A stretch of 64,000 nt of DNA from Parcubacteria group bacterium (GCA_016181765.1 JACOYR010000004.1:35320-99319); one strand, 5' to 3'. Counted from the first letter of the stretch, positions 40,592-58,735 are shown. Numbers and translations are program-made. Notes: generated by a model from the letters alone, not told the origin.

Positions 40592-40621
40592 AGCCAAAGG
40601 GTTTGCAGGGGGCGCCATTTA

Positions 40622-41074: not shown

Positions 41075-41075
41075 C

Positions 41076-41498: not shown

Positions 41499-41499
41499 C

Positions 41500-43261: not shown

Positions 43262-43284
43262 GTATGGTATCATACGAATGAAGG

Positions 43285-43370
43285 TGTGCAGGCGATGTAA
43301 ATTTTTTTGCGAGAATGATGGAGCGAAGCGACCCTTCGGAGTAAAAAAATTTACATCGCCGAACACCTGA
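43285..43370. repeat. large imperfect palindrome in the pilX-like / pilM intergenic region
   Basis: Perfect 18 bp arms GGCGATGTAAATTTTTTT / AAAAAAATTTACATCGCC, extendable to about 25 bp, around a 34 nt loop that has its own small hairpin (CGAAG..CTTCG). Confidence 0.6.
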
Positions 43371-43374
43371 TACT

Positions 43375-44418
43375 ATGGACATTCTCACAGATACATTTGA
43401 CGCATTCGGGCTGGACATAGGCGACCGGTCCCTCAAAGCCGTGCACCTTGCGGGCCGCGGCAAAAACATCCGGGTGCGCACGCACGGCTCTTGCGAGGTG
43501 CCCAAGGGCGTGTTTGAGAAGGGAACATTGGTTGCGCCGGACAAGCTGTGCGCGTCCCTGCGCGCCCTGCTTGCATCATGCGCCCCGAAAAAAATCAAAA
43601 CCCGCTACGTGCACGCCTGTTTGCCGGAAACCCACACCTTCATCAAGCTCCTTGAGTTTTCGGATGTTTCGGGGCCGGAGCTCGGCGCGCGGGTGCGGGA
43701 GGAACTGCCGAGCCACGTTCCGCTGGATATTGATGACGCGTACATTGACTGGACCGTGGTGGGAACCACGGATCAAGGCGGCCTCCGCGTGCTCGCCGGG
43801 GCCATTCCCAAGCAAACGTCAGACTCCTACACCAACGCGCTACGGGCATGCGGGCTCATTCCCCTCTCCTTGCAGGTGGAGGCCCAGGCAATCGTGCGGG
43901 CGCTGGTTGACCGGAACGCGCCCCTGCAGGGGCCGCTCGCCATTGTGGACATCGGCGCCACGCGCTCAAGCTTTATACTGTACGACCGGGGCTCAATCCA
44001 GTTCACGGTGAGCATCCCCTCATCCGGCGAAGATGCGACCGAAGCAATCGCGTCCAAATTATCTATTTCCTACGAAGAAGCCGAGAACGCCAAGCGCACC
44101 ATGGGCCTGGATCCAGGATTAGGAGAGGGAACCGTGGCTAAAATCCTTGCCCCTATGGCGCTCTCCCTCACAAGCGCTATACAAAAAAACTGCATGTTCT
44201 ACGGGGAGCACTTTCCGGGGACTCAACCGGTTGCGGGCATTCTCTTGTGCGGGGGCGGGGCGGCCATGCCCGGATTTTTGGGCACGCTCTCGGATACCAT
44301 GCCCGGCATTGCCATTGCCCACGGCAACCCCGTTCTGCACGTGGCAGGCGGGGAAGAAGCGGGGCTCGGGCTCTCGCACACCACGGCAATCGGCTTGGCT
44401 TTGACACAGCTCATCTGA
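43375..44418 (+). CDS. pilM: type IV pilus assembly protein PilM (actin-like ATPase fold)
   Basis: 347 aa. N-terminus FGLDIGDRSLKAV and internal DIGATRSSF, the actin-fold phosphate motifs typical of PilM/FtsA. Confidence 0.8.
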   Translation: MDILTDTFDAFGLDIGDRSLKAVHLAGRGKNIRVRTHGSCEVPKGVFEKGTLVAPDKLCASLRALLASCAPKKIKTRYVHACLPETHTFIKLLEFSDVSGPELGARVREELPSHVPLDIDDAYIDWTVVGTTDQGGLRVLAGAIPKQTSDSYTNALRACGLIPLSLQVEAQAIVRALVDRNAPLQGPLAIVDIGATRSSFILYDRGSIQFTVSIPSSGEDATEAIASKLSISYEEAENAKRTMGLDPGLGEGTVAKILAPMALSLTSAIQKNCMFYGEHFPGTQPVAGILLCGGGAAMPGFLGTLSDTMPGIAIAHGNPVLHVAGGEEAGLGLSHTTAIGLALTQLI

Positions 44419-44419
44419 C

Positions 44420-44977
44420 ATGCGCCAACCCTACCTCAACTTAATTCCGGAAGCGCACAAGCTCGTGCTGGCGCGCGAGCGCATGTTCTACTTTGTGCAC
44501 ACCATTGTCGGGATACTCGTGGTGGCGCTTGCCGCAAACAGCATCCTCCTCATCCTCGCCCGCTTTATCCTGGTAGACTACGCAAACCAGCTGAAAGACG
44601 ACACGTCGCTGGTTTCGGTGCGGCACTCCAGCTTGCACAAGGAAGTCCAGCGCATCAACCGCGCGCTTTCGGACACTGCCCAGGTCCAGGCCAATTTCGT
44701 GAAATACAGCGATCTGCTCTCGGATGTGGCGGTACTCCTGGGAAACGGCGTCACCATTGACTTTTTGCACGTAAACACGGATGCAAACACCTTGCGCGTG
44801 ACCGGAACTGCCCAAAACCGCGAGGCGCTGGTTCGCGCGCAGGACGCCCTCAAATCCCTGCCCGGCGTGGTTTCACTGGATTCACCGCTTGAGAATTTCC
44901 TTGAGCGCGAAAACATCAGCTTCCGGTTCAATGCGGTGCTTTTGGACAACATTTACCATAATCCCCCGGCCGAATAG
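44420..44977 (+). CDS. pilN: PilN-like bitopic pilus assembly protein
   Basis: 185 aa. Short cytoplasmic N-terminus (LNLIPE motif), one TM helix and a periplasmic domain. Directly downstream of pilM. Confidence 0.7.
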   Translation: MRQPYLNLIPEAHKLVLARERMFYFVHTIVGILVVALAANSILLILARFILVDYANQLKDDTSLVSVRHSSLHKEVQRINRALSDTAQVQANFVKYSDLLSDVAVLLGNGVTIDFLHVNTDANTLRVTGTAQNREALVRAQDALKSLPGVVSLDSPLENFLERENISFRFNAVLLDNIYHNPPAE

Positions 44978-44980
44978 CCT

Positions 44981-45538
44981 ATGCGAGGACTTCTGAAAAA
45001 CCGATTCATGATATCAACCATTGCGTTCGCCCTGCTCCTGGTGGCGCTCGCAGCGCTCATCATATTCCCCTCGTACCGCGAAATCAAGGTCATCAACCAG
45101 CAAGTCCTGGAGGAGCGCATGAGGCTGGAAAAACTCTACACCCAGGGGCAATTGCAGAAGGCGGTGCAGCAGAACTATGAATCAATCAAACAGGAGATCG
45201 GGTTCCTGGATGAGGTCATGCTCGCTGAACGCGAAGAGCTCGCCTACATCACGGCCGTGGAACGCGTTGCCGAAGAGGCGGGGGTTGAGCTTGACCTCGC
45301 AATCGGGGATGCAAAGCGCGTGCCGGACCAGCGCTTCTCGGAACTCGGATTCACGCTTACGGCGCGGGGCGATTGGGAACAGCTGGTGCGCTTTGTCGGG
45401 CGCTTGGAGTCACTGCCCTACTACACGAACATTTCCGAAATGACCACAAGCGCGCGCGAGAACGAGCCCGGCGCGAGCAGGCACGCGGCCATGACCATTG
45501 GAGCCGCCACGTACTGGAGGATTCCGTCCATTCAATGA
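44981..45538 (+). CDS. pilO: PilO-like bitopic pilus assembly protein
   Basis: 185 aa. N-terminal TM, coiled-coil, then a ferredoxin-like PilO-type domain. Confidence 0.65.
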   Translation: MRGLLKNRFMISTIAFALLLVALAALIIFPSYREIKVINQQVLEERMRLEKLYTQGQLQKAVQQNYESIKQEIGFLDEVMLAEREELAYITAVERVAEEAGVELDLAIGDAKRVPDQRFSELGFTLTARGDWEQLVRFVGRLESLPYYTNISEMTTSARENEPGASRHAAMTIGAATYWRIPSIQ

Positions 45539-45545
45539 TACCCGC

Positions 45546-45911
45546 ATGAATCTCCCTTTTTTGCACAAACGAAACACAACCGCGGCCCCCGGCGATTTGG
45601 ACAAGCTCCACGCGGTGCGGCTTGGGGTGATTACTGTAATCGCGCTCTTGCTCGCGAGCGTGTTGGTGTTTTTGTACCGCGACTTTTACCAGACCATTGT
45701 CCAGGCAAAACAAGTAATCGTGCTCAAGCAGGAGGTGGCCCTGGAGAACATTGACCTGAAGCTCTGGAACAGCGTGTCCGCAATCCATAAGTACAAAATA
45801 GCGCCTCAAGCGGCCGGACCCATTGCTGACCCGTTTAAGACGGTCACCATTCCCGCCCCCGAGCCCCCGAGCCAGGCCGAACCTGGGGCGGGCGCGTCCG
45901 ATGCGCTATGA
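45546..45911 (+). CDS. small bitopic membrane protein (possible PilP-like component)
   Basis: About 121 aa from MNLPFLHK, one TM helix and a Pro-rich tail. It overlaps the pilO end in another frame. Weak assignment. Confidence 0.4.
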   Translation: MNLPFLHKRNTTAAPGDLDKLHAVRLGVITVIALLLASVLVFLYRDFYQTIVQAKQVIVLKQEVALENIDLKLWNSVSAIHKYKIAPQAAGPIADPFKTVTIPAPEPPSQAEPGAGASDAL

Positions 45912-46849: not shown

Positions 46850-46854
46850 AAAGA

Positions 46855-46898
46855 ACCCTCCCAAGACTCCAGCGCGCTGGCCGAAATCTTGAGAGGGT
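46855..46898. terminator. putative bidirectional hairpin between convergent corA and the large GTPase-like gene
   Basis: 11 bp imperfect stem ACCCTCCCAAGA / TCTTGAGAGGGT around a 20 nt loop. No clean U-tract on either side. Confidence 0.35.
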
Positions 46899-46984
46899 CC
46901 GTACAAAGGACTACGTACTGAAGAGCGATGCCTCCTTTCTGCGGGGGCGTTGTTGATGTTGGTGTATGTTGAGGTGTCGGTGAG

Positions 46985-49900
46985 TTACGGGCCGCCGACA
47001 GCTGCGCCGCGGGCCGGGTGCATGACCTGGTTCGGGTAGGTGACTCCGAAGTCCAGGAACCACTCATCCGGCTGGAAGAACTGCGCCGCCAGGATGCAGA
47101 CCATGTCCGCGGTCGGAATGGTTTCCTTGAACATGCTCCGGATCCTGACCGCTTCCGCGCCGCCTTCGGCAGTGTTCATAACTACATCATGGGCGTACGC
47201 GCACCAGTTGGCGAACGCCTGCACCGCGAGGTTTGAGGCCTCCCCGCACTCCAGGCCGCCTGCCTTCGCGCACCTCTCTATCCAGGATTCGTGCGCAGCC
47301 TGGTACCGCTTGTGCCGGGACACTAGGTCCAGGGCGTATGCCAACTTCTTTGCCCGAAGGCTCCGTTCCTCAAAACCTCCCAGGTGATTGATGAACCTAA
47401 CGTGCCACACCCCCCGGGCATCCTGGAACAGCGGGCACTCGGGGTGCATGGGCTCATCCGGGCCAAGGATCGCAACCCGGACTCCCTTCTCGGTTACGAA
47501 CGAGAGCCGCGCCCATGCCGCATCCGGATGCGCGGGATTGTATTCCGCGATACCCGGATTCAAAAGGAGCGCTGCAGCCGCGCGCCGGTGCCAGCGCGCG
47601 GTCTCCTCATCCGCGATCCGCGGGGCGTGCCGGTACCGGCCCAGGGGGAACACGGTCAGAGTCTCGGTGAATCCGCTCCGGTTGGTGTCGTCCCTCCGCT
47701 CCCGGGCTTCAGCGTTGATGGCTTCCTCAAGCACGGCATCGTCCTCGCACAAACTTGCGATTGCCGAGCTCGGCAGGGTGTCCACCTGCTTGAACACGAA
47801 CACAGCGGGAACATCCGCGTAGAATACGCGCACCTCGCCCCTGCTGAACCGGAGCGTTTCAACGAATCCGGCGAGCGATCGGGGGCACACCAGCACCGTG
47901 CGCCGGGTCGGGCCCTCAAGTTCCTGCAGACCCTGCTCGTCGATGCGGATGAACGGCTCGGACTCCCGCAGGTGGTCTGCGATGAACTGCCGCGCGTCCG
48001 GGTGCCTGGTGAAGAGATCCTCAAACGATACGGAAATACCGTCCGGCACGCCGATGATATCCTCAAACGGGCAATCCGTGCGCGCAAGCGCGTCCGGCGA
48101 ATCCCAGGAGAACATGGACGCAAAGGCAGATGCAACCGCGCCCTCATCCACAACCAGCGAAGCCGCAAGCGCCTGGTCGTCCGGGAACAGCGAAAGCCGA
48201 ACCGCCGACTTCTCGGCGCGGCCCTGCACGAGCGCTTTCTCCACCTCATCGCGCGCGCGGCCAACTTCCGCGGCGAGATCATCGCGCGCCGCCGTAAAGA
48301 GCGCAATCTGCGCGTCCAGCTCCGCACACACCAGGCCGCGGAGCGCAGCCATTTTGGCGGTGAGCATATGCCGGAGCACGGCTCCCGCAATGGTGCTGAT
48401 CCCTTGGACCATGGATGATACTGCATCATTCAGGTCCTTGTCGGCTTTCGCGCGCGCGGAAGCGATAGCCGGGGATGGTATATTGAAGAGCGCCCGAAAC
48501 CATCCCGGTTGCAAGGCCTCGGCCACAGCATGGGAAGACTTCGCGTCCACAACAGCCGAGCCGGCGCTGATCGCGGCAGATCTGTCCGCGGACAGGAAGT
48601 GGTCCACGGGCCTCTGCTCGGTTCCCTCTCGCGAGTCAAGGGACACCCGAGCCGCAACAAGCGCATCCAGAACGCGGAGCACTCCCATATTCGGAAGCGC
48701 ATTGCGGACCCGCGTTCGCAGATCTGTGATGCGGTCGCCCGCAATCCGAAACACTTCTGCTTCCGGCAATTGGGCATCCACGAACTCGGGGATGGACCGG
48801 ATTGCAGCGACCGTTGCCAAACCGGTTGCCGCGGGATCGTGGATCAGATCCTCCCGAAGCTTGATCTGGTCAAAGACCGGCGCCAGGGACGCGCCCTCGT
48901 TAGCCGAGCGCATCACCCGCTGTTCCCACTGCTCTATGGTCCGCCGGGCGCCGGCTTGCGTAATCGGAGCCGCGAGCGCGGCCGGCTCCGAACCCGGATT
49001 CCCCTCGCGCATGCGGCCAAGCACTGCCGCGCGCTTGCCGAGCGCCGCGATCCGCGGCAACTCGCGCCAGAGCTCGCACACGTGCAGCGCGATAGAGCTC
49101 CACACGAACGGCATGCGCATGGCAGCCGGAACCGCCTTGGCCATGTCCTCGTGCAGCTCAACCGCGAGGAACGATGCCAGTTCCGGAACCTGGGACAAAT
49201 AGTACAGGTAGTCAGCAACCATCCGCTGGGCGTCCTCAAACGAGAGCGCCTGGTCCTTGTCGTTCTTGCCTTCCACCAGAATGATCTGGCCCAGGCAGCC
49301 GGGCTCCACATCCTCGGAAAACCCCGGAAGCAAACCGCCGAAGTGGGGATGGTCTGGATCCGTGCCCAGGAGCACCAACCGGTCCCAGATGCGCGCTGCC
49401 GCAGCCATGATGATCTTGTGCCTGCGGTCGCGCTGGGGATCCCCGGTGATCGGGTACAGCTCCGGCCCCAAGACAATGAGGCGCTGGATCAGCCCGGGGT
49501 TCATCTGCCACCTCCACGCCGCGTGCATGATCGCGGATGCGAGGCCCGTCCCCCCGGTTCCGGCCACGTAGCTGACCTCGCGATCAGCTGACGCGAGCGA
49601 CCGGTCCGCGGAGTCAAACGAGGCATCCACAAATGCGAGCCACTGGGTCACGTGCTGGCGCTCCATGGCGTTCAGCGCAGCCGCAATCACGGGCTGCTTG
49701 TCCACGCCCGAACGCCCTAGGTTGCACCCCGGAAGCCCGTGCCGGGACTGGAGGAACTGAAGCGGCAGATCACGCTCCCACTCCCTCTCATGCTGCCCAA
49801 ACACGGCAGTAAAGTTGGTGACCGACCTGCCCAGGACGTACTCCCTAAGCCAGGGCGAGCGCCGAGTCCGGGATAACAGCTTGTTATTGTTGAGGCAGGC

Positions 49901-50134
49901 GTCTACTGCTCCGATCCGTACCTGCCGGCTGCGGCGCGGGTTTAACCGCAGCATTTGGTCCACCTGCACACCGACCAAGCTGCCCGCGCCGCCGCAGAAC
50001 TGCATCACGTGCCTTCTGTACCGGGTGTCGGCCGCCTCGTTGGCGGGCTCCGCGGCAACAACCGGCTCATGGCGCTCTGGCGCGCCCGCACCCGGACTTT
50101 CGTCCACTGCGGCCGCAACGATTGTGTCTGCCAT
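46985..50134 (-). CDS. large (1049 aa) protein with N-terminal FtsZ/tubulin-superfamily-like GTPase motifs and ~700 aa alpha-helical C-terminal extension
   Basis: T1-like FCGGAGSLVG, T2-like IGAVDACLNN, T3-like GLPGCNLGRSG, T4-like SYVAGTGGTGLASAI and a T7-like LSFEDAQ. Start ATG at 50134 overlaps the stop of the upstream vWA gene by 1 nt (TGATG). SD AGGAGG. Family assignment is inference. Confidence 0.5.
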   Translation of the reverse strand: MADTIVAAAVDESPGAGAPERHEPVVAAEPANEAADTRYRRHVMQFCGGAGSLVGVQVDQMLRLNPRRSRQVRIGAVDACLNNNKLLSRTRRSPWLREYVLGRSVTNFTAVFGQHEREWERDLPLQFLQSRHGLPGCNLGRSGVDKQPVIAAALNAMERQHVTQWLAFVDASFDSADRSLASADREVSYVAGTGGTGLASAIMHAAWRWQMNPGLIQRLIVLGPELYPITGDPQRDRRHKIIMAAAARIWDRLVLLGTDPDHPHFGGLLPGFSEDVEPGCLGQIILVEGKNDKDQALSFEDAQRMVADYLYYLSQVPELASFLAVELHEDMAKAVPAAMRMPFVWSSIALHVCELWRELPRIAALGKRAAVLGRMREGNPGSEPAALAAPITQAGARRTIEQWEQRVMRSANEGASLAPVFDQIKLREDLIHDPAATGLATVAAIRSIPEFVDAQLPEAEVFRIAGDRITDLRTRVRNALPNMGVLRVLDALVAARVSLDSREGTEQRPVDHFLSADRSAAISAGSAVVDAKSSHAVAEALQPGWFRALFNIPSPAIASARAKADKDLNDAVSSMVQGISTIAGAVLRHMLTAKMAALRGLVCAELDAQIALFTAARDDLAAEVGRARDEVEKALVQGRAEKSAVRLSLFPDDQALAASLVVDEGAVASAFASMFSWDSPDALARTDCPFEDIIGVPDGISVSFEDLFTRHPDARQFIADHLRESEPFIRIDEQGLQELEGPTRRTVLVCPRSLAGFVETLRFSRGEVRVFYADVPAVFVFKQVDTLPSSAIASLCEDDAVLEEAINAEARERRDDTNRSGFTETLTVFPLGRYRHAPRIADEETARWHRRAAAALLLNPGIAEYNPAHPDAAWARLSFVTEKGVRVAILGPDEPMHPECPLFQDARGVWHVRFINHLGGFEERSLRAKKLAYALDLVSRHKRYQAAHESWIERCAKAGGLECGEASNLAVQAFANWCAYAHDVVMNTAEGGAEAVRIRSMFKETIPTADMVCILAAQFFQPDEWFLDFGVTYPNQVMHPARGAAVGGP

Positions 50135-51918
50135 CAGATGTAAACCTCCTCGGTTGATAGTTCTTGAACTGTTGGTTGGATGACGGCGCTATCTGCCGCA
50201 ACACTGGGCACTACTGCCCCATCCACCTGGTATGCCTGATTCACTGCATCCAGGATCTGGACTGACTGGGCAACCAGGGGGTACATCTTCCCGGGCTGCA
50301 TCGGAACCCTGTCTATGCCCGCCGCACTCCCGGAAAGCGGGAACATGCTGCATGGAACGCGCGGGCCGATGTAGATGCCGTTCGGAGTCGGAACGACGGC
50401 GATGTTCCTCACCTCAAACCACGTGCTCCTGATCGGCCTCACTTGGCCATTGCAGGCAATGTGCCCCACAACACCGCTGGTATCCTGCGGCAGCGCTCGG
50501 CTGGTAACAGTATGCTCGCTCCAGGCCCGCATGCGCCGAGCAGCCACGAAAAGCATCGCAACAGCGAACACAAGGATCGCGGCAATGCCGAGGAGCTTGT
50601 CCGGAATCCAATCCCGGTACAGCCATGCCCGCCGCTCCGCGAGAATGGCAGGCCGGTTCCCACGCTCCGTAAGGCTCACGCTCCCATGCGGCACGAGCTT
50701 CACCTTGCACGGGACTGGCCGTGAGAGCGGCCAGAGCACGTCCCCGGGAGGCGGCGACTCTTCGTTGAATGCGACAAAGACCTCAACTTCTGCCTTGTCC
50801 GGAATCACGAGTCCCTCGGAAAACGGGATTGGCTCGCTTTCGGAACCGCGGATCTTCCAGAACCCGAGCACATGTGCGGCATCGCTTGAGTTCTCGGAAT
50901 CTGCAACTAGAACCGCAGTAAAAAGCTCGCCGGATGCCCGCGTTGGCGCATCCAGCAAAAGCTCATACACTCCGGCCAAGTACATCTCTCCAAGGCCGGA
51001 AACCAAAATCCGGGCCGGCTCGTTAAGATTTGCCCATGAGTAGGAGCCGTTCAGCTCCCGGTCAATGGCCTCAAACCGCTTGCGCACATCAGCCCAGGAT
51101 CCGGCCGGGTACACCGGGAAATCCGCATTCCCGAACAAGCTGCGCAGGTGCACCTCCCCTGGGTACTCCATATCGCGTGTGTTCACAGACACAAGCTCCA
51201 CCGAGAACATGCCTTTGCGTTCCTGCGGAACGCGGGACATGCACTCCTGGAGCGCTTCCTGGAAAAACCACGAATCCTGGCCGGCAGGCTCATCATTCCA
51301 GCCGTCTCCCACAATGGTCGCGTGGAACCGGATTCCGGACTCTTTCAACTCAATGAACCCGTTCTCCATGTCAGTCAGGAGCGGGAGCGCGTAGTTGGTG
51401 TACGCGGTTTCGGCTTTCCCGAAAGCGTGCCTGGTCAGGTAGTCCTTTACCATTGCGGCAAGTACTGCGCGCCCCGAGTCCGAGGCTGCCGTTGGCCAGG
51501 GCACATAGCTCGTACCCACCAGGCGCACGGTTACTTTGTTCGCGCCGGACACGGCAAGAATCCGGTCGCGGACAATTGCCGCGGCCTCGTCACGTTCCTC
51601 CTCTGAAAGCGAAGCCGAGATGTCCAAATACACCACCTCATGGTACGTGCCGTTGGGCGTGTTCCACCCAGGAACCTCAACGCCGCCGTGCACAGGCAAG
51701 GCTGATTCCGCCGCTGGCGCGGCGCGCTCAACCAAAGGCGCGCTTACACCGGCCGTATCACGATCCCACACCGTACGAACCGGAGGGACCATGGTCTCCC
51801 CGGTGTGCGATGGGTCATCATCCGGAACACCCATATTGGGGTCAAAACCGCACCCGAACACGGAAACAGTCCCTAACGCGGCAGCGCACAACGCCAAAAA
51901 CAACTTTCTCTCGCGCAT
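50134..51918 (-). CDS. von Willebrand factor A (vWA) domain membrane lipoprotein
   Basis: 594 aa. Lipoprotein signal LGTVSVFGC. MIDAS-like VVYLDISASL (DxSxS) with downstream T and D residues (IVGDGWND). TM helix LLGIAAILVFAVAMLFVAA at about aa 440 and a C-terminal domain. SD GGGAGGG 8 nt upstream of the ATG. Own promoter upstream. Confidence 0.55.
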   Translation of the reverse strand: MRERKLFLALCAAALGTVSVFGCGFDPNMGVPDDDPSHTGETMVPPVRTVWDRDTAGVSAPLVERAAPAAESALPVHGGVEVPGWNTPNGTYHEVVYLDISASLSEEERDEAAAIVRDRILAVSGANKVTVRLVGTSYVPWPTAASDSGRAVLAAMVKDYLTRHAFGKAETAYTNYALPLLTDMENGFIELKESGIRFHATIVGDGWNDEPAGQDSWFFQEALQECMSRVPQERKGMFSVELVSVNTRDMEYPGEVHLRSLFGNADFPVYPAGSWADVRKRFEAIDRELNGSYSWANLNEPARILVSGLGEMYLAGVYELLLDAPTRASGELFTAVLVADSENSSDAAHVLGFWKIRGSESEPIPFSEGLVIPDKAEVEVFVAFNEESPPPGDVLWPLSRPVPCKVKLVPHGSVSLTERGNRPAILAERRAWLYRDWIPDKLLGIAAILVFAVAMLFVAARRMRAWSEHTVTSRALPQDTSGVVGHIACNGQVRPIRSTWFEVRNIAVVPTPNGIYIGPRVPCSMFPLSGSAAGIDRVPMQPGKMYPLVAQSVQILDAVNQAYQVDGAVVPSVAADSAVIQPTVQELSTEEVYI

Positions 51919-51995
51919 TTCGGCATCCCTCCCGTGAATAGTGCGAGTGATTGCTTACTGATTGTCAATGTTCTGTTTTTGTTTGCTAGATGATA

Positions 51996-52024
51996 TTTAT
52001 ACTATATTATATTAGAATTGTCAA
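51996..52024 (-). promoter_or_regulatory. sigma70-like promoter for the vWA/GTPase-like operon
   Basis: Minus strand: TTGACA (52024..52019), 17 nt spacer, TATAAA (52001..51996). About 70 nt upstream of the vWA gene start. Confidence 0.5.
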
Positions 52025-52032
52025 TAATTTTC

Positions 52033-52076
52033 AAAAAAAGAACCCTCTGCCTCTCAAAACCGAGAAAGACAGAGGG
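52033..52076 (-). terminator. Rho-independent terminator of the coiled-coil protein gene
   Basis: Minus strand: stem CCCTCTG..CAGAGGG followed by TTCTTTTTTTG. It lies 60 nt downstream of the 52139 stop. Confidence 0.6.
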
Positions 52077-52138
52077 TTTTGGACGTATGGCCAACAAACA
52101 ATAGCGAGTGTACAGAGTGAACAGCTACTGGGTGCGGC

Positions 52139-53881
52139 TCACTCCCTTGCCTTCGGGCGCGTTGCGCGTCCGCGCACCGGATGCGCTTCACGGCCATTGT
52201 CTTGCCCTGGACCCGATGTATCCGCAAGCCGTGCCGACTCGGGTGCCGGCTTGCCGCGCTCCAGCGCAGGCCGGGCTTCTCCGCCGAGCAGTGCGGCTGC
52301 GTCCAGGCGGAATCCATCCTGAATCCCGCGGTCCGACATGCCTGCCGCGCGCAAGGCAATGGCTGCCTGCACGCGAGTGCTCTCGCTGTTGATAAGCCCG
52401 GCGGCTTCATTGAGCCGCGCCCGGACAGCCGGAATCGTATTCGCGACAATAACGACGCGTGCCTGTATGTCCACTTCCGAGACGCGCCGCGCCACCTCGG
52501 CTTGCGCGTGGGCCTCAACCGCGTCCTTGAGCTCCTGGTCGCGCTGTGCGATCCCCTCCTCCAGACTCTTGAGGAGCGGCCGCACGAACTCTTCGCGCGC
52601 AACCTGGAGCACGATCAGAGTGAGCGCTTCGCGGTCAGCGCCTGGAATGCGGTCCAGAAACTCCTGGACTTTAGGACGCTGATCTTCTGTGCGCTTCTTC
52701 AGCCGCGCTTCTTCTGCCTCGAGGCTCGCGCGCTTCTCTTCCAGCTTCGCGATGAGTTCCGTGCGGTCATCAGGCGTGATTCGCGCATCATTCCTGACCT
52801 GCTGTCCGATGCTTGGAACGGACCCGAGGTCCGCCCTTTCAATCGCGCGGCCAAGGCCAGTAAGCGCGTTTGCGCGCTGCTTTTCCTTGAGCTCTGCCTC
52901 GCGTTCATCAAGCGCGTGGTAGAGCTCATCCTTGCGCTCCCGGGAAATCGCGGCAGCCGCCACGATTTCCCGCGTCGCCGCAACGTCGTCCGTGCCCTTG
53001 ACCGCGGCTGTGAGGTGTACCTCGGCGCGCTTCTCCCACGCGGCTATGAGCCGTGCCGCGTTCTCCGCGTCCAAGGCTCCCGTCTGGGCGCTCTCGGACA
53101 CACGGCCGCGAATCGGCCAGAACTTGTCCCGACCCTCGGAAGCGATGGACGCGCTGATCTCGCGAACCAGAGCTTCCTGCGCCTCCTCGCGCTTGCGGAT
53201 GTGCTCCGGCGGCCGGACATCAACCGTCACGTCCTTGAACGAAAACACGTTGCCCTCGTTCGCAAGCCCCGCAAGCGCGCCCTTCATAGCATCTCGAATC
53301 TCGCTTGCAAGCTGTGACTCCCGGGACACGCCTGCATGTCCCGGCAACCCGAGAACCCTGTGCTCGGAGTATGTCCGGCTGCCGAGAATCTCGGCAAACG
53401 GGCTTGTGAGCATGTCCCGAGCAGCCTGCCAATCCCCGGACAGGACGTACGGCAGGCCCTGCTGGGTGCGCGCGAGCAACGCAGGCATGCTGGCGACCTG
53501 GGCCGTGCCGCAGACTACCACGTCCAGTGGAATTGCCTCGCCCGCGCCAGGCTTGGTCGGAATGCCCGGGTAGATCCACTGGAAGCTGAACGTGTTCGTG
53601 TGTACCACAAATGGCATCATGCTGTCTATCGCCGGGCTCTCGCCCCGGGCGACGACCCGAAGCCCTGTCGGCGTCATCACGAGGAATGTGGCGCCGGCGC
53701 GCGAGAGCAAGCGCCTGCGGACCGGTGCCAATTTCGCGGCGAGCGATGCTCTCGGCGCCGTGATGATGAGGGGCACCGCACCAGACTGGTCACCCCTCCC
53801 CAGAAACTCCAGGTCCTCGGACACATTGACTCGGTCCAGCGTTGTGACGCTGGTCCCGGTTACTGCAATCTTCTGTGCCAT
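52139..53881 (-). CDS. hypothetical protein: N-terminal ~220 aa globular domain + long Glu/Arg/Ala-rich coiled-coil
   Basis: Start taken at ATG (MAQKIAVTG) preceded by AAGGAGGGG with 7 nt spacer. The ORF track starts 12 codons earlier at a TTG. No family recognised. Separately terminated from the downstream vWA operon. Confidence 0.55.
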   Translation of the reverse strand: MAQKIAVTGTSVTTLDRVNVSEDLEFLGRGDQSGAVPLIITAPRASLAAKLAPVRRRLLSRAGATFLVMTPTGLRVVARGESPAIDSMMPFVVHTNTFSFQWIYPGIPTKPGAGEAIPLDVVVCGTAQVASMPALLARTQQGLPYVLSGDWQAARDMLTSPFAEILGSRTYSEHRVLGLPGHAGVSRESQLASEIRDAMKGALAGLANEGNVFSFKDVTVDVRPPEHIRKREEAQEALVREISASIASEGRDKFWPIRGRVSESAQTGALDAENAARLIAAWEKRAEVHLTAAVKGTDDVAATREIVAAAAISRERKDELYHALDEREAELKEKQRANALTGLGRAIERADLGSVPSIGQQVRNDARITPDDRTELIAKLEEKRASLEAEEARLKKRTEDQRPKVQEFLDRIPGADREALTLIVLQVAREEFVRPLLKSLEEGIAQRDQELKDAVEAHAQAEVARRVSEVDIQARVVIVANTIPAVRARLNEAAGLINSESTRVQAAIALRAAGMSDRGIQDGFRLDAAALLGGEARPALERGKPAPESARLADTSGPGQDNGREAHPVRGRATRPKARE

Positions 53882-53984
53882 CACTTGCCCCTCCTTCAGG
53901 TGGGCGTACTTGCGCAAAGGTTAGGGTTGATTCAGCGAATTTGTACACAACACTGATTTTCAAATAACAACAAAACTACAGTTA

Positions 53985-54052: not shown

Positions 54053-54167
54053 GACTAAAGAAATCTAACTCGGTCGTTGACAACCTATTATTTAGGATAC
54101 AACACAAACAAAATCACCTGACTTCCCGCAACTTCCACAGCGCAACTATTGCGAAGGAGATGATCGC

Positions 54168-54407
54168 ATGAACGCAGCAACAGCGCCTGGCCAAAGCCAG
54201 ACAGTGGAACAGGCCAGGGAACGCGCGCGCCAGAAAGCGGCGCAGATCACGGAACAGATGGCTGTGGCAAAGACCGCGGCCGCTGTCCGGGCTATCCTGG
54301 ACACCCTGCCCGGCGCAAACCAGGTCGGCGAACTTACGCCTGATGATTTGGCCAGGCTTACGGAGCATGGCCAGTCCCTGGAGCCGAGCCGACCCCAGCC
54401 GCAATGA
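54168..54407 (+). CDS. small hydrophilic protein (79 aa), first gene of plus-strand operon
   Basis: SD GAAGGAG 8 nt upstream. Stop overlaps the next gene start (ATGA). Ala/Gln-rich and helical. Confidence 0.5.
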   Translation: MNAATAPGQSQTVEQARERARQKAAQITEQMAVAKTAAAVRAILDTLPGANQVGELTPDDLARLTEHGQSLEPSRPQPQ

Positions 54408-54937
54408 CGAACAAGCGCGCGCACATCAAGCGCGTGCTCATCCGGTGCGGCGAGTTTGATCTCGCCCGCGCGCGGACCGTGGGCCTCGTCACGCCATTCC
54501 TGGGAACTAAGCCAAAGCGCTGGAGAAAAGAGCGCACAGGCGGGCTGCTGGACGGTCCGCAGTACCACGCGGAAAACCCGGACGACACACAAGAAATCCG
54601 GGATCACCTAAAGGCGCTCGCAGATACCCGGCGCAGAAGCATCAAGCGCGCGCGCCGATGGTTTTGCCTGTGCTCGCTCATACTACTCTTCGCGGGCCCG
54701 GTCCTGGTGATGCTTACCAAGGCTCCGGTCACCCGTCTAGATATCATCCCGTTCATTGTGCGCCATCCCTTCATGATGGCGGCAGTTCCGATCTCATTCG
54801 CGGCGATCCTCGCCGCGAACCGCATTCCAGGACATGGCATCGCGTGGATAGGGGCGCTCCAGGGAAACTGGATGGCCAAACTCTTCGCTATCACGGCCTG
54901 GATCTGGCTCTTCACCATGATACTCACCCACTCCTAG
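54404..54937 (+). CDS. membrane protein (3-4 TM), unknown function
   Basis: 177 aa. Translationally coupled to the preceding gene. Basic N-terminus then hydrophobic helices. Confidence 0.5.
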   Translation: MTNKRAHIKRVLIRCGEFDLARARTVGLVTPFLGTKPKRWRKERTGGLLDGPQYHAENPDDTQEIRDHLKALADTRRRSIKRARRWFCLCSLILLFAGPVLVMLTKAPVTRLDIIPFIVRHPFMMAAVPISFAAILAANRIPGHGIAWIGALQGNWMAKLFAITAWIWLFTMILTHS

Positions 54938-54951: not shown

Positions 54952-55587
54952 ATGAATCAGCAACAGCGCGGAGGCCAAGGCCGCCGCAACAGAAACCGCG
55001 GAGGTGGCGGGCAGGGCGGCAACGCCCTGAACATCCCAGGTGTTCCGCAGCAGGTAATCAGGAACGCGCTGGACCAGATAGAGGTCGGCGAACTCGGAGA
55101 TGAAATCCTTGACCATCTGCAGGCAGACGGCCGAAGAGCTGAAGAGAGGCACAGGGCCGACATCGCCAAGATGGCCGCTGAAACCGATCGTGTCAAAGTA
55201 GAAACCGAAGCAAAGCGGGCTACGGACGCGAGGGCTGCCGAAAAAGATCGCAAAGAGGCGGAATCCGCGTCCAAGGCTTCGCGGCAGAAAGCGAACTTCT
55301 TGGTTGCGCAAGCCTTGTCCGAGTACCTTGCGAGCATCAACGGCATCACGGCGCTCGCAGAGCTCCATCGCAGGCGGATCACGGTCCAGTTCCTGGACAA
55401 ACTCACTCCGGCTGCATTGGAGCACTTCCGCGCCTCGCTCGGGCAGATGGCTCAAGAGGGCGCCGAAAACACGTCCGATAAAATCCAAAAAATACTTGCG
55501 CTACTCGGGAAAACCGAGAGCGACACCGAACGGTTCCGCATCGCATGTGCGCTCGGGCTCTTGCCCGAGCAGTACCAGAGGAGTTGA
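54952..55587 (+). CDS. hypothetical protein with N-terminal Arg/Gly-rich (RGG-like) segment and coiled-coil
   Basis: 211 aa from MNQQQRGGQGRRNRNRGGGGQGG. SD-like GCAGAGG upstream. The upstream part of the 309 aa track ORF overlaps the previous gene and is rejected. Confidence 0.5.
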   Translation: MNQQQRGGQGRRNRNRGGGGQGGNALNIPGVPQQVIRNALDQIEVGELGDEILDHLQADGRRAEERHRADIAKMAAETDRVKVETEAKRATDARAAEKDRKEAESASKASRQKANFLVAQALSEYLASINGITALAELHRRRITVQFLDKLTPAALEHFRASLGQMAQEGAENTSDKIQKILALLGKTESDTERFRIACALGLLPEQYQRS

Positions 55588-55589
55588 AG

Positions 55590-56288
55590 ATGAAAAAACT
55601 CAATGAGATATTCAACAAATTGTTTGAAGAGACGGTTGGCCAGGTTGGCGCGGGCTTTGTGAACCGGACCATCCTCGGAGGGAGCGGGGAACCGGTGCAG
55701 GTATCGGTTCCACGGATCTCGGGGCTGCATACGTTCCGCGCGGGCATTCTGCCGAGCCTCGGGCTTGCTGATGAAAGCGCGTTCGGCGGGGACATAGCCC
55801 TGTTCAATGAATGGGCCGCCAGACTCTACGGCACATCCGCAAATCCGGTCATTGCCGAGTTCATCGGGAAGTTGGTGCGCCTGCGCCAAACCGAGCCCTG
55901 GAGGGCAACACTCCTGCGCGTCATCATCACCAAGCATCCACACGAGGCCGCGCAGCGCCAGATACTCGTATTCCTCGCGAACAGCAGCGGGTACGACGAT
56001 TTCTACAACAGAGTCTGCATGCTCGTTCCGGAGAAGCAGTTGTCAACCAAAGCCGGCGAGTGGCTGCGCCGAAACGTCCTGAATTGGGGCGCCGTAAAGA
56101 AACACGCGCGCTCCGGCCGAGATTTCACTGTGCGGCACGCGCGGCGCGGCGACAGCTATGTCGCCCGCACCGCGGTACCCCCGGTCCGCGCAAAGCGCGT
56201 GGCGTGGAACGCAAGCCTGGATCGCACAGCGCGCCGCATTGAGCAGAACGGCGGCAGGCTCTCCACTAAGTGGTGGCTCCCCTTCTGA
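55590..56288 (+). CDS. hypothetical protein (232 aa)
   Basis: Start MKKLNEIF preceded by GAGGAG. It starts 3 nt after the previous stop. No family recognised. Confidence 0.5.
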   Translation: MKKLNEIFNKLFEETVGQVGAGFVNRTILGGSGEPVQVSVPRISGLHTFRAGILPSLGLADESAFGGDIALFNEWAARLYGTSANPVIAEFIGKLVRLRQTEPWRATLLRVIITKHPHEAAQRQILVFLANSSGYDDFYNRVCMLVPEKQLSTKAGEWLRRNVLNWGAVKKHARSGRDFTVRHARRGDSYVARTAVPPVRAKRVAWNASLDRTARRIEQNGGRLSTKWWLPF

Positions 56289-56320
56289 ACCCAACACACC
56301 AAAAACAAGGAGTAAGGACA

Positions 56321-58735
56321 ATGAGCGGACTTCTGAAAGAACTGCTGGAAATCCTCCTGGGATTCCTGCGGTTTGACTTCCGGGTCACGTGGGCAGTCGC
56401 ATCCGGCGCCGCCAGGCGCCTGTTTGTCTCCATCGGCATTGAGCTCATCGCCATCGTGGCCTTCGCCGCCCTGGCGCAGTTCAATCCGTACTGGTATCTG
56501 GCCTGCGCCGGTGCCACTCTGGCCATCTCCGTGTACCAGTACGCGTTTCTCGCGGCAATCACGATTCCCATGGCCGCGAATTTCGCGCTTGAGCATCAGC
56601 TCTCGCTGGTCCTGGTCCAGATTCTGGGTGCGGCCCAAGTGCCGCTCGCCAAAATCGCAACTGCGGTAGCCGAGTTCCGGGGGAAGATCGGCCAGATCAT
56701 CGCCCAGCCCGAAGGGGAAATCGGCGATTCCATCATGACGCTCCTCCTCCAAGTTGTAAGGCCATTGGAGCTGCCGAACGCCATCGTGAACCTGGCCGCG
56801 GATCCCATGATCGCGGTTATCAGGGCCGTGGACAAATCCATCCAGGAGCTGCCCGGAAAAACCTGGCAGCAAATCAAAAAGGTTGCCGGCCCGGTGCTCT
56901 CCGGCTTCCTGGTGTTCCAGTGGTTCAGTGTCGCCGGATGGGCGCTGCTCGCGGCGAGCCCGCCCGCCATCGTGTGGGCTCCGATATTCGCGGCAGCAGT
57001 CGGCGCGATTCTCACGCTGCTCGCGATTCCAAGCCGCAAAGAACAACACCCGCGCACGCGGTTTGAGAATGCCATGCTCTGGGTGCTCGGTGTGTCTCTC
57101 GTGTACGCAGCCTACATGTACTACGATGAATCGCTGTTCGTGCTCCCGCTGCTCGTGGTGCCGATCATGGCCGCACTCCTCTTTGCCCTCGCGTGTTGGG
57201 GATTGCGGTTTGGAGGCAGCATGCTGGTACTGGTTGTGGGTGTATGGGGCATTGTCTCGCCCCAGCACTGGCTCGCAACCCGGAACTCGTTCGGCGGCTT
57301 GAACCAGAGCGCGCCCGAGTACGCGGAAGTGCGCAATCCCTGCCAGGCGTACCAGCCTGGCCGCGGCAGGACCTACGTCCGTGATCCGACCATCAAGCCC
57401 CTCAAAGAGGGAGATGTATTGCGGCTCGCGCGCAGCTCTTCGTTTGAGTCTCCGACAAGCGATTCAAAAGACAACCTCTGGCTGGAAATGGTTGGAGTGG
57501 TTGATGTTGCCACGGGTATGGTTGACCCAGGCGCCAAGAACTTCTGGGTACCCTTGGGCTACGTCAAGCAAACCGGCTGGGATCCTGCGGAGGTGGCAGT
57601 CGGCGCAACCGGAGGCGCGCAGGGCGCCTTGCCCTACAATCCCTACGCCATCTGGGACCAGACCGCAGAACCGCCGGTCAAAGTGGCAAGCTTCAACCCG
57701 GGGTTGGACGCGCCCGCCGAAGTGCGGCCCAACACCACTCCGCTCATGCACCCGCTCGGCGACTACCGCATCACGCCCATTGTCTACTATGGCACCATCC
57801 GGCAACGGGACGGCATGCGGAACTGGAGCGATGTGTTCCCGGCTTCCGTTGGCACGCCAGTGCGCGCTGGCGCGGCAGGAACCGTGATCGCCGTGCATCC
57901 GGCCAAACGCCACGAGGTAAGCGCTATCGTGCTTCGCCACGACAACAGTGAACGAGGCACGTTCTACACGCGCTACCTGGAGGTGGGCACGATCCTGGTT
58001 GCCGTGGGAAACACAGTCAGCCAGGGAGATACTATCGCGCGATCCGACGGCAGGCCCGGAGCCAGCGGTACAATGAGCGACGCGCAAGAACCCCACATCG
58101 GGTTTGAGGTGTGGGCCGTCGTAGAGGGTCCCAACACCTGGTTTCCGGTGGACACTATGCGGTGGATCAATGGAGTGGCCGCCCAGAAAGTGGTGATAGC
58201 GCCCCAGGAATTCACCGCCTACCCCCTGTACCCCATCCCCGGAACCGAAGACGAGTATGAGGTTCCGGTCAACCGGCCCGTAAGTATTCTCGCGGACCGC
58301 GTACGGTTGGGGAATCTAGTGGACATCCGGGTTCTCTCTCCAGAAGCGGGCTATGTCATCAACGGCCGGGAGGAACACCGCGCCTACTTCCGGGAGCCCA
58401 TCGCGCTGTTGGGCAAACCGTACCCCAAGGTCAAGGGTACGGACGCGTTCGTGTGGCAGACCTACTCCTTCTACACGGACCACGAACAGGCAAAGTACGG
58501 CCAGCTCATTGCCGGCATCAACGGCTTTGAGACTGCGTATGGCCTGCACTACGGCGCAACGAGGTTCACGGCGGAGGAAGACGGCGCCGTCTGCATCGGC
58601 ATCAACGAGGCGGTGGGCATCCGCGCGAATAACGAGCGCTTGGTGGATGCGTCCGCCGACAACTACGTCAGGGACTCAACCCGTGATGTGGTCCGCGTCA
58701 AGGTCGCCATCAGGCGCGGCGGTTCCGCAATCTGA
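56321..58735 (+). CDS. polytopic membrane protein (about 9-10 TM) with C-terminal degenerate M23/LytM-like peptidase domain
   Basis: About 805 aa from MSGLLKELLE (SD AAGGAG). The N-terminal ~330 aa are hydrophobic. The C-terminal region GDYRITPIVYYG..VGTPVRAGAAGTVIAVH..GTFYTRYLEVGTILVAVGNTVSQGDTIARSDGRPGASGT..PHIGFEVW follows M23 topology but lacks the full HxH (HIGFE), so it is probably non-catalytic. Confidence 0.55.
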   Translation: MSGLLKELLEILLGFLRFDFRVTWAVASGAARRLFVSIGIELIAIVAFAALAQFNPYWYLACAGATLAISVYQYAFLAAITIPMAANFALEHQLSLVLVQILGAAQVPLAKIATAVAEFRGKIGQIIAQPEGEIGDSIMTLLLQVVRPLELPNAIVNLAADPMIAVIRAVDKSIQELPGKTWQQIKKVAGPVLSGFLVFQWFSVAGWALLAASPPAIVWAPIFAAAVGAILTLLAIPSRKEQHPRTRFENAMLWVLGVSLVYAAYMYYDESLFVLPLLVVPIMAALLFALACWGLRFGGSMLVLVVGVWGIVSPQHWLATRNSFGGLNQSAPEYAEVRNPCQAYQPGRGRTYVRDPTIKPLKEGDVLRLARSSSFESPTSDSKDNLWLEMVGVVDVATGMVDPGAKNFWVPLGYVKQTGWDPAEVAVGATGGAQGALPYNPYAIWDQTAEPPVKVASFNPGLDAPAEVRPNTTPLMHPLGDYRITPIVYYGTIRQRDGMRNWSDVFPASVGTPVRAGAAGTVIAVHPAKRHEVSAIVLRHDNSERGTFYTRYLEVGTILVAVGNTVSQGDTIARSDGRPGASGTMSDAQEPHIGFEVWAVVEGPNTWFPVDTMRWINGVAAQKVVIAPQEFTAYPLYPIPGTEDEYEVPVNRPVSILADRVRLGNLVDIRVLSPEAGYVINGREEHRAYFREPIALLGKPYPKVKGTDAFVWQTYSFYTDHEQAKYGQLIAGINGFETAYGLHYGATRFTAEEDGAVCIGINEAVGIRANNERLVDASADNYVRDSTRDVVRVKVAIRRGGSAI

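Follow-up and report, generated by a model that had tools for sequence, protein, structure and literature searches.

To our knowledge, the FtsZl1 proteins are the most divergent relatives of tubulin and FtsZ known, and the literature that we searched held no experimental study of any of them. Operons that pair an FtsZl1 gene with a gene for a vWA-domain protein were predicted by Makarova and Koonin in 2010 (PMC2875224). Here, we analyzed a window of 64,000 nucleotides from the genome of a Parcubacteria group bacterium (GCA_016181765.1, JACOYR010000004.1:35320-99319); this window is the whole stretch of DNA examined, and all positions are counted from its first letter. It contains a very rare, unannotated gene cluster, and we estimate with a probability of about 60% that the locus represents a very divergent offshoot of the FtsZl1-vWA system type, with new envelope partners and a putative function. 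The first-pass annotation had presented the system as a candidate undescribed one, a label that must be dropped for the system type, given the operons predicted earlier.

The three minus-strand open reading frames on which that annotation was based were all found, at 46985..50134 (1049 aa), 50134..51918 (594 aa), and 52139..53917 (592 aa). The stop codon of the vWA gene and the ATG of the 1049-aa gene overlap by one nucleotide, as had been claimed (cTGATGg), and the latter gene is translationally coupled to the former. The promoter-like pair TTGACA-17-TATAAA was located upstream of the vWA gene at 52024..51996, and the same AT-rich spacer contains a second, better pair, TTGAAA-17-TATAAT, at 52034..52006 (11 of 12 matches); the ATG of the vWA gene is preceded by the ribosome-binding site GGGAGGG. 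The Rho-independent terminator described 3' of the coiled-coil gene was present, and another hairpin separates the vWA/GTPase operon from corA, which is convergent with it. Instead of the proposed trio, the conserved unit is a divergent module of seven genes that includes an M23/LytM membrane protein encoded outside the interval first annotated. The features are listed in Table 1.

Table 1. Positions of the genes, protein regions and candidate control signals of the module in the window.
Feature	Position	Strand	Basis or remark
Intrinsic-terminator-like hairpin, end of vWA/GTPase operon	46853..46900	-	20-bp stem, then T-run
1049-aa FtsZl1-like tubulin-superfamily protein (probable)	46985..50134	-	ORF; NCBI hypothetical protein HYT31_02890
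C-terminal region, residues 661-1049	46988..48154	-	conserved within family only (alignments)
Ala-rich helical middle, residues 380-660	48155..48997	-	composition and heptad scan
N-terminal tubulin/FtsZ-like domain, ~residues 38-365	49040..50023	-	
T4-like loop SYVAGTGGTGLASAI, residues 188-202	49529..49573	-	between predicted strand and helix
T1-like glycine loop FCGGAGSLVG, residues 46-55	49970..49999	-	between predicted strand 1 and helix 1
594-aa bitopic membrane protein	50134..51918	-	ORF, TM prediction, orthologue alignment
Second TM helix, residues 442-460	50539..50595	-	hydropathy 2.88, in all orthologues
Predicted vWA domain, ~residues 88-300	51019..51657	-	MIDAS pattern
Promoter-like hexamer pairs, upstream of vWA gene	51996..52034	-	consensus matches only
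Intrinsic-terminator-like hairpin, 3' of coiled-coil gene	52041..52078	-	15-bp stem, then T-run
580-aa soluble protein, likely start ATG 53881	52139..53881	-	orthologue comparison
s1, small membrane protein, 3 predicted TM helices	54404..54937	+	first gene of divergent operon
s2, 211-aa soluble protein	54952..55587	+	Gly/Gln/Arg-rich N-terminus, charged helical middle
s3, ~232-aa soluble protein	55590..56288	+	ORF opens 55545, likely start ATG 55590
821-aa polytopic membrane protein, M23/LytM domain	56270..58735	+	likely start ATG 56321

The N-terminal ~340 aa of the 1049-aa protein very probably belong to the tubulin/FtsZ superfamily, with FtsZl1 (Pfam Tubulin_2) as the nearest relative. The protein family is small: only five clusters at 50% identity were found among 1.84 billion proteins, two of them distant members (19-21% identity) that bridge to FtsZl1, and only three proteins were found among 5.8e9 clusters. 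When the family N-domain was compared by hhalign with 31 FtsZl1 sequences, transcribed from Additional file 2 of Makarova and Koonin, the result was a probability of 95.6% with an E value of 1.2e-8 over 196 columns. This is the same level as the benchmark, the known relationship between FtsZl1 and FtsZ (96.1%, E 3e-9). Control comparisons with 30 column-shuffles scored 17 at most, and the reversed query scored 15.8. An independent replicate against eight annotated plasmid 'tubulin-like' proteins gave 94.2% and E 1.2e-7 over 296 columns, which span the whole Tubulin_2 domain. The close clade alone reached only E 0.01 against FtsZl1, indicating that the link depends on the two bridging sequences, and the direct comparison of the family N-domain with FtsZ gave 0.2%. 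Placement in the tubulin/FtsZ superfamily, as proposed in the first-pass annotation, was thus borne out by profile-profile comparison, and the FtsZl1 family that it had named proved to be the nearest relative. Of the profile searches that it had suggested, the comparison with FtsZl1 was positive and those with the Pfam models found nothing: Pfam Tubulin (PF00091) gave no match at E<=1, nor at E<=10 for the N-domains, and the Tubulin_2 HMM (PF13809) recovered none of the six family members at E<=10. Canonical FtsZl1 proteins, used as positive controls, matched Tubulin_2 at 7e-61 to 3e-115. Sequence searches of Pfam, NCBIfam, PADLOC, and PDB returned no match for any of the three proteins first annotated. 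With this locus, the FtsZl1 family would reach beyond what current profile models detect. The AlphaFold model of the 1049-aa protein, also suggested as a check, was of low confidence (pLDDT 46, pTM 0.49); a Foldseek search with this model found no match at E 1e-3 or better.

All the motifs previously quoted for the 1049-aa protein were found in its sequence, and its N-domain has the predicted Rossmann-like order of the tubulin/FtsZ fold, S1-H1-S2 ... S4-T4-H4-S5-H5. In the six family sequences, down to 19% identity, G48, G49, D78, G143, and G194-G195-x-G197 are invariant. The T1-like loop aligns with the GLGGTG loop of FtsZl1 and the T4-like loop with GSLAGGTGSG; judged from these alignments, the phosphate-binding positions T1 and T4 both keep their glycine loops. 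The strict T4 tubulin signature, [SAG]GGTG[SAT]G, is not kept, as the 1049-aa protein reads GTGGTGLA; the G-G-x-G core is invariant in the six sequences and the flanking positions differ from the signature. The stretch LSFEDAQ, formerly taken as T7-like, aligned to an FtsZl1 helix after an S6/T6-like strand ending at Asn291, where no T7 is demonstrable, and neither a T7 loop nor a C-terminal activation domain was identifiable in the protein. With the strict signature lost and these two elements not identifiable, GTP hydrolysis and polymerization are only putative. The helical middle contains a heptad-rich, Pro-free stretch at residues 566-640, and the low-confidence structure model places a long helix at 555-642. 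For the C-terminal region, neither FtsZl1 C-termini nor Pfam nor PDB gave a match.

The gene upstream encodes a predicted vWA membrane protein whose MIDAS is intact by alignment. The MIDAS consists of D99-x-S101-x-S103, T174, and D205, with canonical spacings of 75 and 31 residues, and the DISAS motif reported earlier was upheld by alignment of six orthologues: D99, S101, S103, and D205 are invariant in all six, and at position 174 five of them have Thr and the one from L005 has Ser. Among the six orthologues, two matched VWA_2 or VWA of Pfam at 2-3e-4; a close orthologue matched VWA_CoxE at 0.065, and the window's own copy had no Pfam VWA match. The strength of the orthologues' matches equals that of the vWA protein linked to FtsZl1 in Thermus. 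Along the protein, a signal/lipobox helix is followed by the vWA domain, a beta-rich region, a second TM helix with an Arg-rich cytoplasmic flank directly after it, and a tail of ~130 aa. The earlier assignment of a C-terminal ectodomain appears to have the topology reversed. Since the N-terminal signal/anchor helix precedes the vWA domain and the second TM helix follows it, this domain would be the ectodomain, exposed on the outside, and the last ~130 aa would be cytoplasmic; this topology is predicted from the signal/anchor, the second TM helix, and the positive-inside flanks.

For the coiled-coil gene, comparison with orthologues points to ATG 53881 as the most likely start, which gives a product of 580 aa and not 592. 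This protein has a globular head of ~225 aa and an A/E/R-rich helical tail, and it is 44-49% identical to its orthologues in L001 and L002 over the first ~390 residues, with a mean column identity of 66% in the alignment. It had no Pfam or PDB match. At the position of this gene, the more distant loci L003 and L004 carry a two-TM protein with no detectable similarity to it, so the coiled-coil partner proposed in the first-pass annotation holds for the close clade and is replaced in the distant relatives. On the divergent side, the position of s1 is conserved in L001-L004. For the 821-aa protein, ~5 TM helices and an extracytoplasmic M23/LytM domain are predicted; it matched Pfam Peptidase_M23 at E 2e-10 (41 bits; cut-off 28.7 bits), and ShyA matched its M23 domain at E 0.004. 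In the alignment with ShyA, the zinc motifs of the window copy are degenerate, HxxxD being replaced by RNWSD and HxH by HIG, suggesting a degenerate LytM domain that is probably non-catalytic. Among the M23 orthologues, HxxxD and HxH are variably present.

With the patterns used, the module was detected in two loci among 185,579 species genomes, and its hosts are Parcubacteria and a few unclassified metagenomic contigs. The seven-gene arrangement is kept in L001-L004, two of which have different flanking genes. The vWA and GTPase-like genes occurred together in every relative found, always facing the divergent operon for the M23/LytM protein and three small proteins; it is this pair that stands from the trio, the unit being the seven genes. 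Between clades, BLAST similarity was found for the GTPase-like and vWA proteins (window against L003/L004) and for the N-terminal region of the M23 protein (L003 against L002, E 7e-14). The close relatives are syntenic with the window, two contigs over the whole neighborhood and one over part of it, and the flanks of the window module are type IV pilus, CorA, and SecDF genes. The window also contains mreB, mur, and ftsW-type genes, and the module lies outside the mur region. The locus is GC-richer, as first noted, with 0.60-0.65 in the three genes against 0.54-0.61 in the pil, sec, and corA neighbors. The lateral acquisition read from this excess was not sustained: GC3 equals that of the neighbors, so the excess reflects the amino-acid composition of the proteins, and the locus is syntenic in close relatives.

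We tentatively propose, at somewhat less than even odds, that the module works as a trans-envelope scaffold. The GTPase-like protein would oligomerize or switch conformation with guanine nucleotide under the membrane, and its C-terminal region would dock either on the vWA protein, at its cytoplasmic tail, or on membrane partners. This docking could position or regulate metal-dependent binding by the external vWA domain, and likewise the cell-wall-binding LytM domain, probably non-catalytic in the window copy. The whole would then serve local remodeling of the envelope or cell surface, in loose analogy to the way in which FtsE, in the cytoplasm, drives EnvC in the periplasm through FtsX. A more far-reaching reading, which we consider unlikely, is that these proteins form a new tubulin-superfamily family that assembles, driven by nucleotide, into a filament or ring beneath the membrane of these ultra-small Parcubacteria and, through the vWA tail and the LytM protein, controls an extracellular metal-dependent adhesin and local wall remodeling, for example at a site of host contact. 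If true, it would be a minimal trans-envelope cytoskeletal machine without a described counterpart, in an episymbiotic lineage.

Among the alternatives, the one that survives best, although still unlikely, is an inter-organism conflict or anti-phage system in which the external vWA or wall-binding protein senses an invader or a perturbed envelope and the tubulin-like NTPase, as a switch or oligomerizing transducer, triggers a membrane or cell-wall effector. Plasmid FtsZl1-vWA loci adjoin BrxL, caspase/CHAT, TROVE, WYL, nucleases, and transposases in defense-island-like surroundings, and the family is extremely sparse and fast-evolving, with accessory genes that turn over between clades, both typical of conflict systems. 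However, no PADLOC model matched any of the three proteins, the flanks of the window and its close relatives are syntenic housekeeping genes, GC3 matches the host genome, and the module has no recognizable toxin or nuclease effector, its M23 domain being degenerate. Should it prove a conflict system, the tubulin fold would be linked to immunity. EnvC and NlpD are degenerate LytM factors that activate septal amidases, and by this token the module might be an accessory, particular to this lineage, of cell division or of peptidoglycan separation; the FtsZl1-like protein would be drawn to the septum, where the LytM membrane protein would activate wall hydrolases. The probable tubulin-superfamily membership of the 1049-aa protein and the mreB, mur, and ftsW-type genes in the window favor this idea, which we nevertheless judge improbable: with the patterns used, the module is missing from almost all other Parcubacteria (two loci among 185,579 species genomes), which indicates that it is not a general division component, and it sits apart from the mur region. 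Makarova and Koonin (PMC2875224) argued that FtsZl1 co-occurs with canonical FtsZ and is unlikely to act in division. It is very improbable that the N-domain has a different Rossmann-like fold that binds nucleotides or ligands (e.g., Get3/ParA-like or CARF-like) with coincidental glycine-rich loops, even if CARF-domain and Get3 proteins were among the weak Foldseek matches (none at E<=1e-3), model confidence is low, direct FtsZ, Tubulin, or Tubulin_2 profile matches are missing, and the strict GGGTG(S/T)G is absent from the 1049-aa protein.

Read as a divergent FtsZl1-vWA branch, the locus would extend this type to the Candidate Phyla Radiation, where its partners differ and center on the envelope: they comprise a vWA domain predicted to face outward, a membrane protein whose LytM domain is degenerate, and small membrane proteins. 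Its compact, conserved seven-gene order and predicted topology offer testable ideas on how a tubulin-like NTPase may be wired across a membrane, and if the protein forms filaments, it would be a new cytoskeletal element in organisms thought to be minimal in their cell biology.

Compared with known systems, the locus is closest to FtsZl1, whose proteins are of similar length (~1000-1200 aa) and likewise begin with a tubulin/FtsZ-like domain of ~340 aa, followed by a helical or coiled-coil middle and a non-FtsZ C-terminus. The profile homology spans the whole N-domain, with the Trp-containing insert that is specific to the family and the block that follows H5, and the lack of an identifiable T7 loop is a limitation reported for FtsZl1 too. 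In both, a vWA gene with intact MIDAS, often membrane-associated, lies immediately upstream: in Thermus, the vWA-then-tubulin-like genes overlap as in the window, whereas in the Nostoc and Allomeiothermus plasmid loci they are adjacent without overlap. Unlike FtsZl1, the window family is missed by the Tubulin_2 HMM (E>10), its T4 loop reads GTGGTGLA and not (A/S)GGTGSG, its C-terminal ~700 aa are unrelated by sequence, and its host is a Parcubacteria (CPR) genome. The partners differ as well. FtsZl1 is accompanied by Ser/Thr protein kinases, a divergent P-loop GTPase, and OmpA-family proteins, none of which occurs in the seven-gene module, where M23/LytM and small lineage-specific proteins are present; canonical FtsZl1 neighborhoods searched with HMMs of the module proteins gave no match, and the FtsZl1 neighborhood tables of Makarova and Koonin (PMC2875224) list no M23 protein. 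The distance to FtsZ, tubulin, CetZ, TubZ, and PhuZ (PF00091) is greater, as the 1049-aa protein has no direct sequence or profile similarity to them, lacks FtsZ_C, Tubulin_C, and a recognizable T7, and carries ~700 extra residues, and the module has no dcw or partition-system context. FtsEX-EnvC is a functional analogy only. Its components are non-homologous, with an ABC ATPase in place of the tubulin-like NTPase, and in the module, the LytM domain and a polytopic membrane region form one protein and the coupling is putative. Even so, both combine a cytoplasmic NTPase, membrane proteins, and an extracytoplasmic degenerate LytM domain that would bind or regulate the cell wall and not cut it.

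Profile comparison placed the large protein of the locus in the tubulin superfamily, as an FtsZl1-type member; FtsZl1 is Pfam Tubulin_2 (PF13809), the family described by Makarova and Koonin 2010 (PMC2875224). In a six-sequence alignment, the invariant N-terminal residues were G48-G49, D78, G143, G194-G195-x-G197, R237, G257-T258 and L269-P-G-F272. An AlphaFold model of residues 38-381, built from six sequences, had low confidence (pLDDT 46, pTM 0.49); in this model, GGAGS linked strand 1 to helix 1 and GTGGTG likewise joined a strand to a helix, which is where tubulin has its T1 and T4 loops. A full-length model, built with three sequences, had a pLDDT of 34 and was discarded as being of no use. 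When the low-confidence N-domain model was submitted to Foldseek, no match was obtained at E 1e-3; the best one was CetZ (E 0.012), with CARF and Get3 folds mixed in. Because the model was weak, model-independent sequence evidence was sought. The reference sets for hhalign were 31 FtsZl1 and 12 FtsZ N-domains, transcribed from Makarova and Koonin (2010), Additional file 2. The family N-domain matched FtsZl1 with a probability of 95.6% (E 1.2e-8) over 196 columns, almost the entire template, and the benchmark, the accepted remote homology between FtsZl1 and FtsZ, gave 96.1% (E 3e-9). A direct link to FtsZ was absent, with 0.2% against the 12-sequence profile and a negative comparison with the single E. 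coli FtsZ sequence. The best of 30 column-shuffled queries against FtsZl1 gave E 0.13, with a top score of 17, and the reversed query scored 15.8. The two distant members alone gave 96.4% (E 1.1e-9) and were the source of the signal, the close clade alone being weak (4.1%, E 0.01), and the FtsZl1 link rests on these two bridging sequences and on alignments transcribed or assembled by us.

Searches with tblastn found 14 plasmids with annotated 'tubulin-like' genes. Eight full-length proteins from these plasmids served for a second, independent hhalign test, in which the probability was 94.2% (E 1.2e-7) and the match extended through 296 columns, the full span of Pfam Tubulin_2. The T1 loop, the T4 loop, the T5 Pro and helix H5 were in register, as were the S2 Asp (VDAC/IDTC in the family, IDTD in FtsZl1) and the insert specific to FtsZl1, in which a Trp is conserved. 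The post-H5 block of the family, 'EPGCLGQIILVEGKN...LSFEDAQRMVA', aligned with 'PFDxVYLVxxxN...emvA' of FtsZl1; therefore, LSFEDAQ, taken as T7-like in the first-pass annotation, fell in a helix that comes after a strand resembling S6/T6, and its T7 reading was rejected. No T7 loop was assignable in the large protein from the alignment with plasmid FtsZl1, and FtsZl1 itself had likewise been noted earlier as having none that could be assigned. Within the C-terminal ~700 aa, a helical, Ala-rich part that is heptad-rich at 566-640 comes first and a conserved region second, and no similarity to FtsZl1 C-termini was found.

The large protein carries the NCBI label 'hypothetical protein HYT31_02890 [Parcubacteria group bacterium]'. 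Scans of Pfam, NCBIfam, PADLOC and PHROGs gave no meaningful match for the large, vWA or coiled-coil protein, and phmmer and hmmsearch against PDB sequences retrieved nothing for the three. Among 5.8 billion clusters searched by word index, the large protein retrieved only itself and two relatives (64% and 51% identity), and exhaustive profile searching with HMMER through 1.84 billion representatives yielded five clusters, two of them being the distant full-length members P0010 and P0011 (19-21% identity). A pattern scan based on a three-sequence alignment, with one genome per species across 185,579 species, returned two loci, both already-known close relatives. The two closest relatives, L006 (CAYIMZ010000008.1, encoding the 64%-identical protein) and L007 (CAZSGI010000009.1), come from MAG records labelled 'uncultured Gammaproteobacteria bacterium'. 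The second record, which is also our locus L002, was gene-for-gene syntenic with the Parcubacteria MAG over SecF, the module and the PilM-O region. Both Gammaproteobacteria labels are probably wrong.

The three minus-strand reading frames proposed in the first-pass annotation were recovered as described, together with the one-base overlap (TGATG) of the vWA stop codon with the large-gene start codon, a promoter-like site in the AT-rich spacer 5' of the vWA gene and the terminator of the coiled-coil gene. The same spacer contained a second, better promoter-like site, and a GGGAGGG ribosome-binding site was found 3' of both. From the promoter-like sites, the terminators and the overlap, the vWA and GTPase-like genes are read as one bicistronic unit, with a separate transcript for the coiled-coil gene.

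Features of the locus and its surroundings (window positions unless a locus is named)
Feature	Position	Strand	Description
Large GTPase-like gene	46985..50134	-	1049 aa
Large-gene terminator	46900..46853		20-bp stem
vWA gene	50134..51918	-	594 aa
Promoter-like site, as first annotated	52024..51996		TTGACA-17-TATAAA
Second promoter-like site	52034..52006		TTGAAA-17-TATAAT
Coiled-coil gene terminator	52078..52041		15-bp stem
Coiled-coil gene	52139..53917	-	592 aa as first read; from orthologue comparison, start most likely ATG 53881 (580 aa)
s1	54404..54937	+	177 aa; three TM helices (predicted)
s1 in L001	4677-5570		longer copy
s1 in L002	4673-5605		longer copy
ORF overlapping s1	54146-54607	opposite to s1	153 aa; probably spurious
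s2	54952..55587	+	soluble (predicted)
s3	55590..56288	+	soluble (predicted)
M23/LytM gene	56270..58735	+	~five N-terminal TM helices
Type IV pilus set, complete	37618-45911		PilB-like ATPase, PilC-like platform, several prepilin-like genes, PilM, PilN-like, PilO-like
Low-GC island	27900-37300		GC 0.34-0.44 vs ~0.57 elsewhere; seven minus-strand ORFs

From its motifs and predicted topology, the 594-aa product was assigned as a membrane protein with an extracytoplasmic vWA domain. Residues D99-x-S101-x-S103 and D205 (in V/T-D-G) were invariant among six orthologues with identity as low as 18%, the T174 position was Thr in five and Ser in the sixth, and the spacings of 75 and 31 between MIDAS residues were canonical. 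In Pfam, VWA_2 or VWA was hit at 2-3e-4 by two of the six orthologues, and VWA_CoxE at 0.065 by another one; among vWA proteins of canonical FtsZl1 loci, that of Thermus did no better (3e-4) and that of Nostoc was undetected. When the vWA family was compared by hhalign with three FtsZl1-linked vWA proteins, the result was not significant. The vWA domain follows an N-terminal signal/anchor helix, which in the close clade bears a lipobox Cys, and a second TM helix (residues 442-460) followed by Arg-rich sequence sets off a C-terminal tail of ~130 aa. Hydropathy and flanking charges, read by the positive-inside rule, predict an extracytoplasmic vWA domain and a cytoplasmic tail, which reverses the C-terminal ectodomain proposed previously.

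In the four loci with enough sequence (close-clade L001 and L002, distant-clade L003 and L004), one extra gene precedes the vWA/GTPase pair, and opposite lies a divergently oriented operon, made up of three small genes and a gene for a 668-821-aa M23-domain protein. In L005, partial on a shorter contig, the pair adjoins pil genes. Type IV pilus genes, CorA and SecDF flank the module in the close clade and different genes (Dus) do so in the distant clade; since the flanks differ, the module itself, with its seven genes in divergent arrangement, is the conserved unit. Inter-clade BLAST similarity was detected for the GTPase-like and vWA proteins (window against L003 and L004) and for the N-terminal region of the M23 protein (L003 against L002, E 7e-14). 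The coiled-coil partner was kept in the close clade only; a two-TM protein with no detectable similarity to it takes its place in the distant clade. The M23 protein matched Pfam M23 at 2e-10. In the window copy, the domain (~residues 515-615) has RNWSD for HxxxD and HIG for HxH, and the zinc ligands are missing; HxxxD and/or HxH are retained in some orthologues only. In known cases, EnvC and NlpD, degenerate LytM domains bind or regulate peptidoglycan and do not cleave it, and the motif loss in the window likewise suggests a binding or regulatory role rather than catalysis. Neither the coiled-coil nor the M23 protein gave a significant hhalign result against proteins encoded downstream of FtsZl1 in Thermales. 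The s1 product is 297-310 aa long in L001 and L002, where it carries an additional N-terminal helical extension of ~120 aa.

The earlier remark that the locus is GC-richer held for total GC (0.60-0.65 in module genes vs 0.54-0.61 in neighbours) but not for GC3 (0.69-0.78 vs 0.69-0.79); the excess was at codon positions 1 and 2 and followed the Ala/Gly/Arg/Pro-rich proteins. With GC3 equal to that of the neighbours and synteny conserved, recent lateral acquisition was therefore unsupported, and the transfer idea put forward on the basis of GC was rejected. Elsewhere in the window, the low-GC island encodes, among others, Bro-N domain, zinc-ribbon and DUF6804 proteins and a secreted SNase + Excalibur nuclease; the window contains no tRNA. 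The island probably represents a mobile element, or what is left of a prophage, that was inserted beside the type IV pilus ATPase gene. The pilus set directly adjoins the module, with CorA in between, in the close clade only.

Beyond the homology, conserved glycine loops, intact MIDAS, gene coupling and module conservation observed here, we propose that the cytoplasmic GTPase-like protein would act as a nucleotide-dependent oligomer or switch that docks on the vWA cytoplasmic tail and on membrane partners. Such docking would order the two external domains, vWA and LytM, as a scaffold across the envelope that serves to remodel the envelope or the cell surface. The main rival is that the module is a conflict or defence system, as canonical FtsZl1-vWA plasmid loci sit amid BrxL, caspase/CHAT, TROVE, WYL and nuclease genes; the present module, however, is flanked by housekeeping genes and contains no toxin-like effector, and PADLOC matched none of its large, vWA and coiled-coil proteins. 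These plasmid pairs (L009, L010, L012 and L013, on Thermus, Allomeiothermus, Nostoc and Azospirillum plasmids) are also adjoined by transposases, and their defence-island-like context was not stressed in the 2010 description.

Known FtsZl1 operons encode vWA proteins, often membrane-bound with an intact MIDAS, together with kinases, a P-loop GTPase and OmpA proteins, and a role in membrane remodelling was proposed (Makarova and Koonin 2010, PMC2875224). In a 2023 survey, Tubulin_2 proteins are treated as an outgroup to the rest of the superfamily, both sparse and divergent. The possible kinship with FtsZl1 and its membrane-associated partners, raised in the first-pass annotation, was supported by the N-domain homology in hhalign and the upstream vWA gene; overall architecture is also common to both, and the vWA/GTPase gene overlap recurs in the Thermus FtsZl1 locus. 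In contrast, the C-terminal two-thirds is unrelated, and the family HMM, which detects canonical FtsZl1 at 7e-61 to 3e-115, recovered no large-protein family member at E<=10. The kinase, P-loop GTPase and OmpA partners are missing from the present locus, whereas it has a LytM membrane protein, and M23 proteins are absent from the neighbourhood tables of PMC2875224. A literature search found neither experimental work on FtsZl1 nor a description of a CPR version. The locus is therefore regarded as a new form of the FtsZl1-vWA kind, which was already known from computational prediction.
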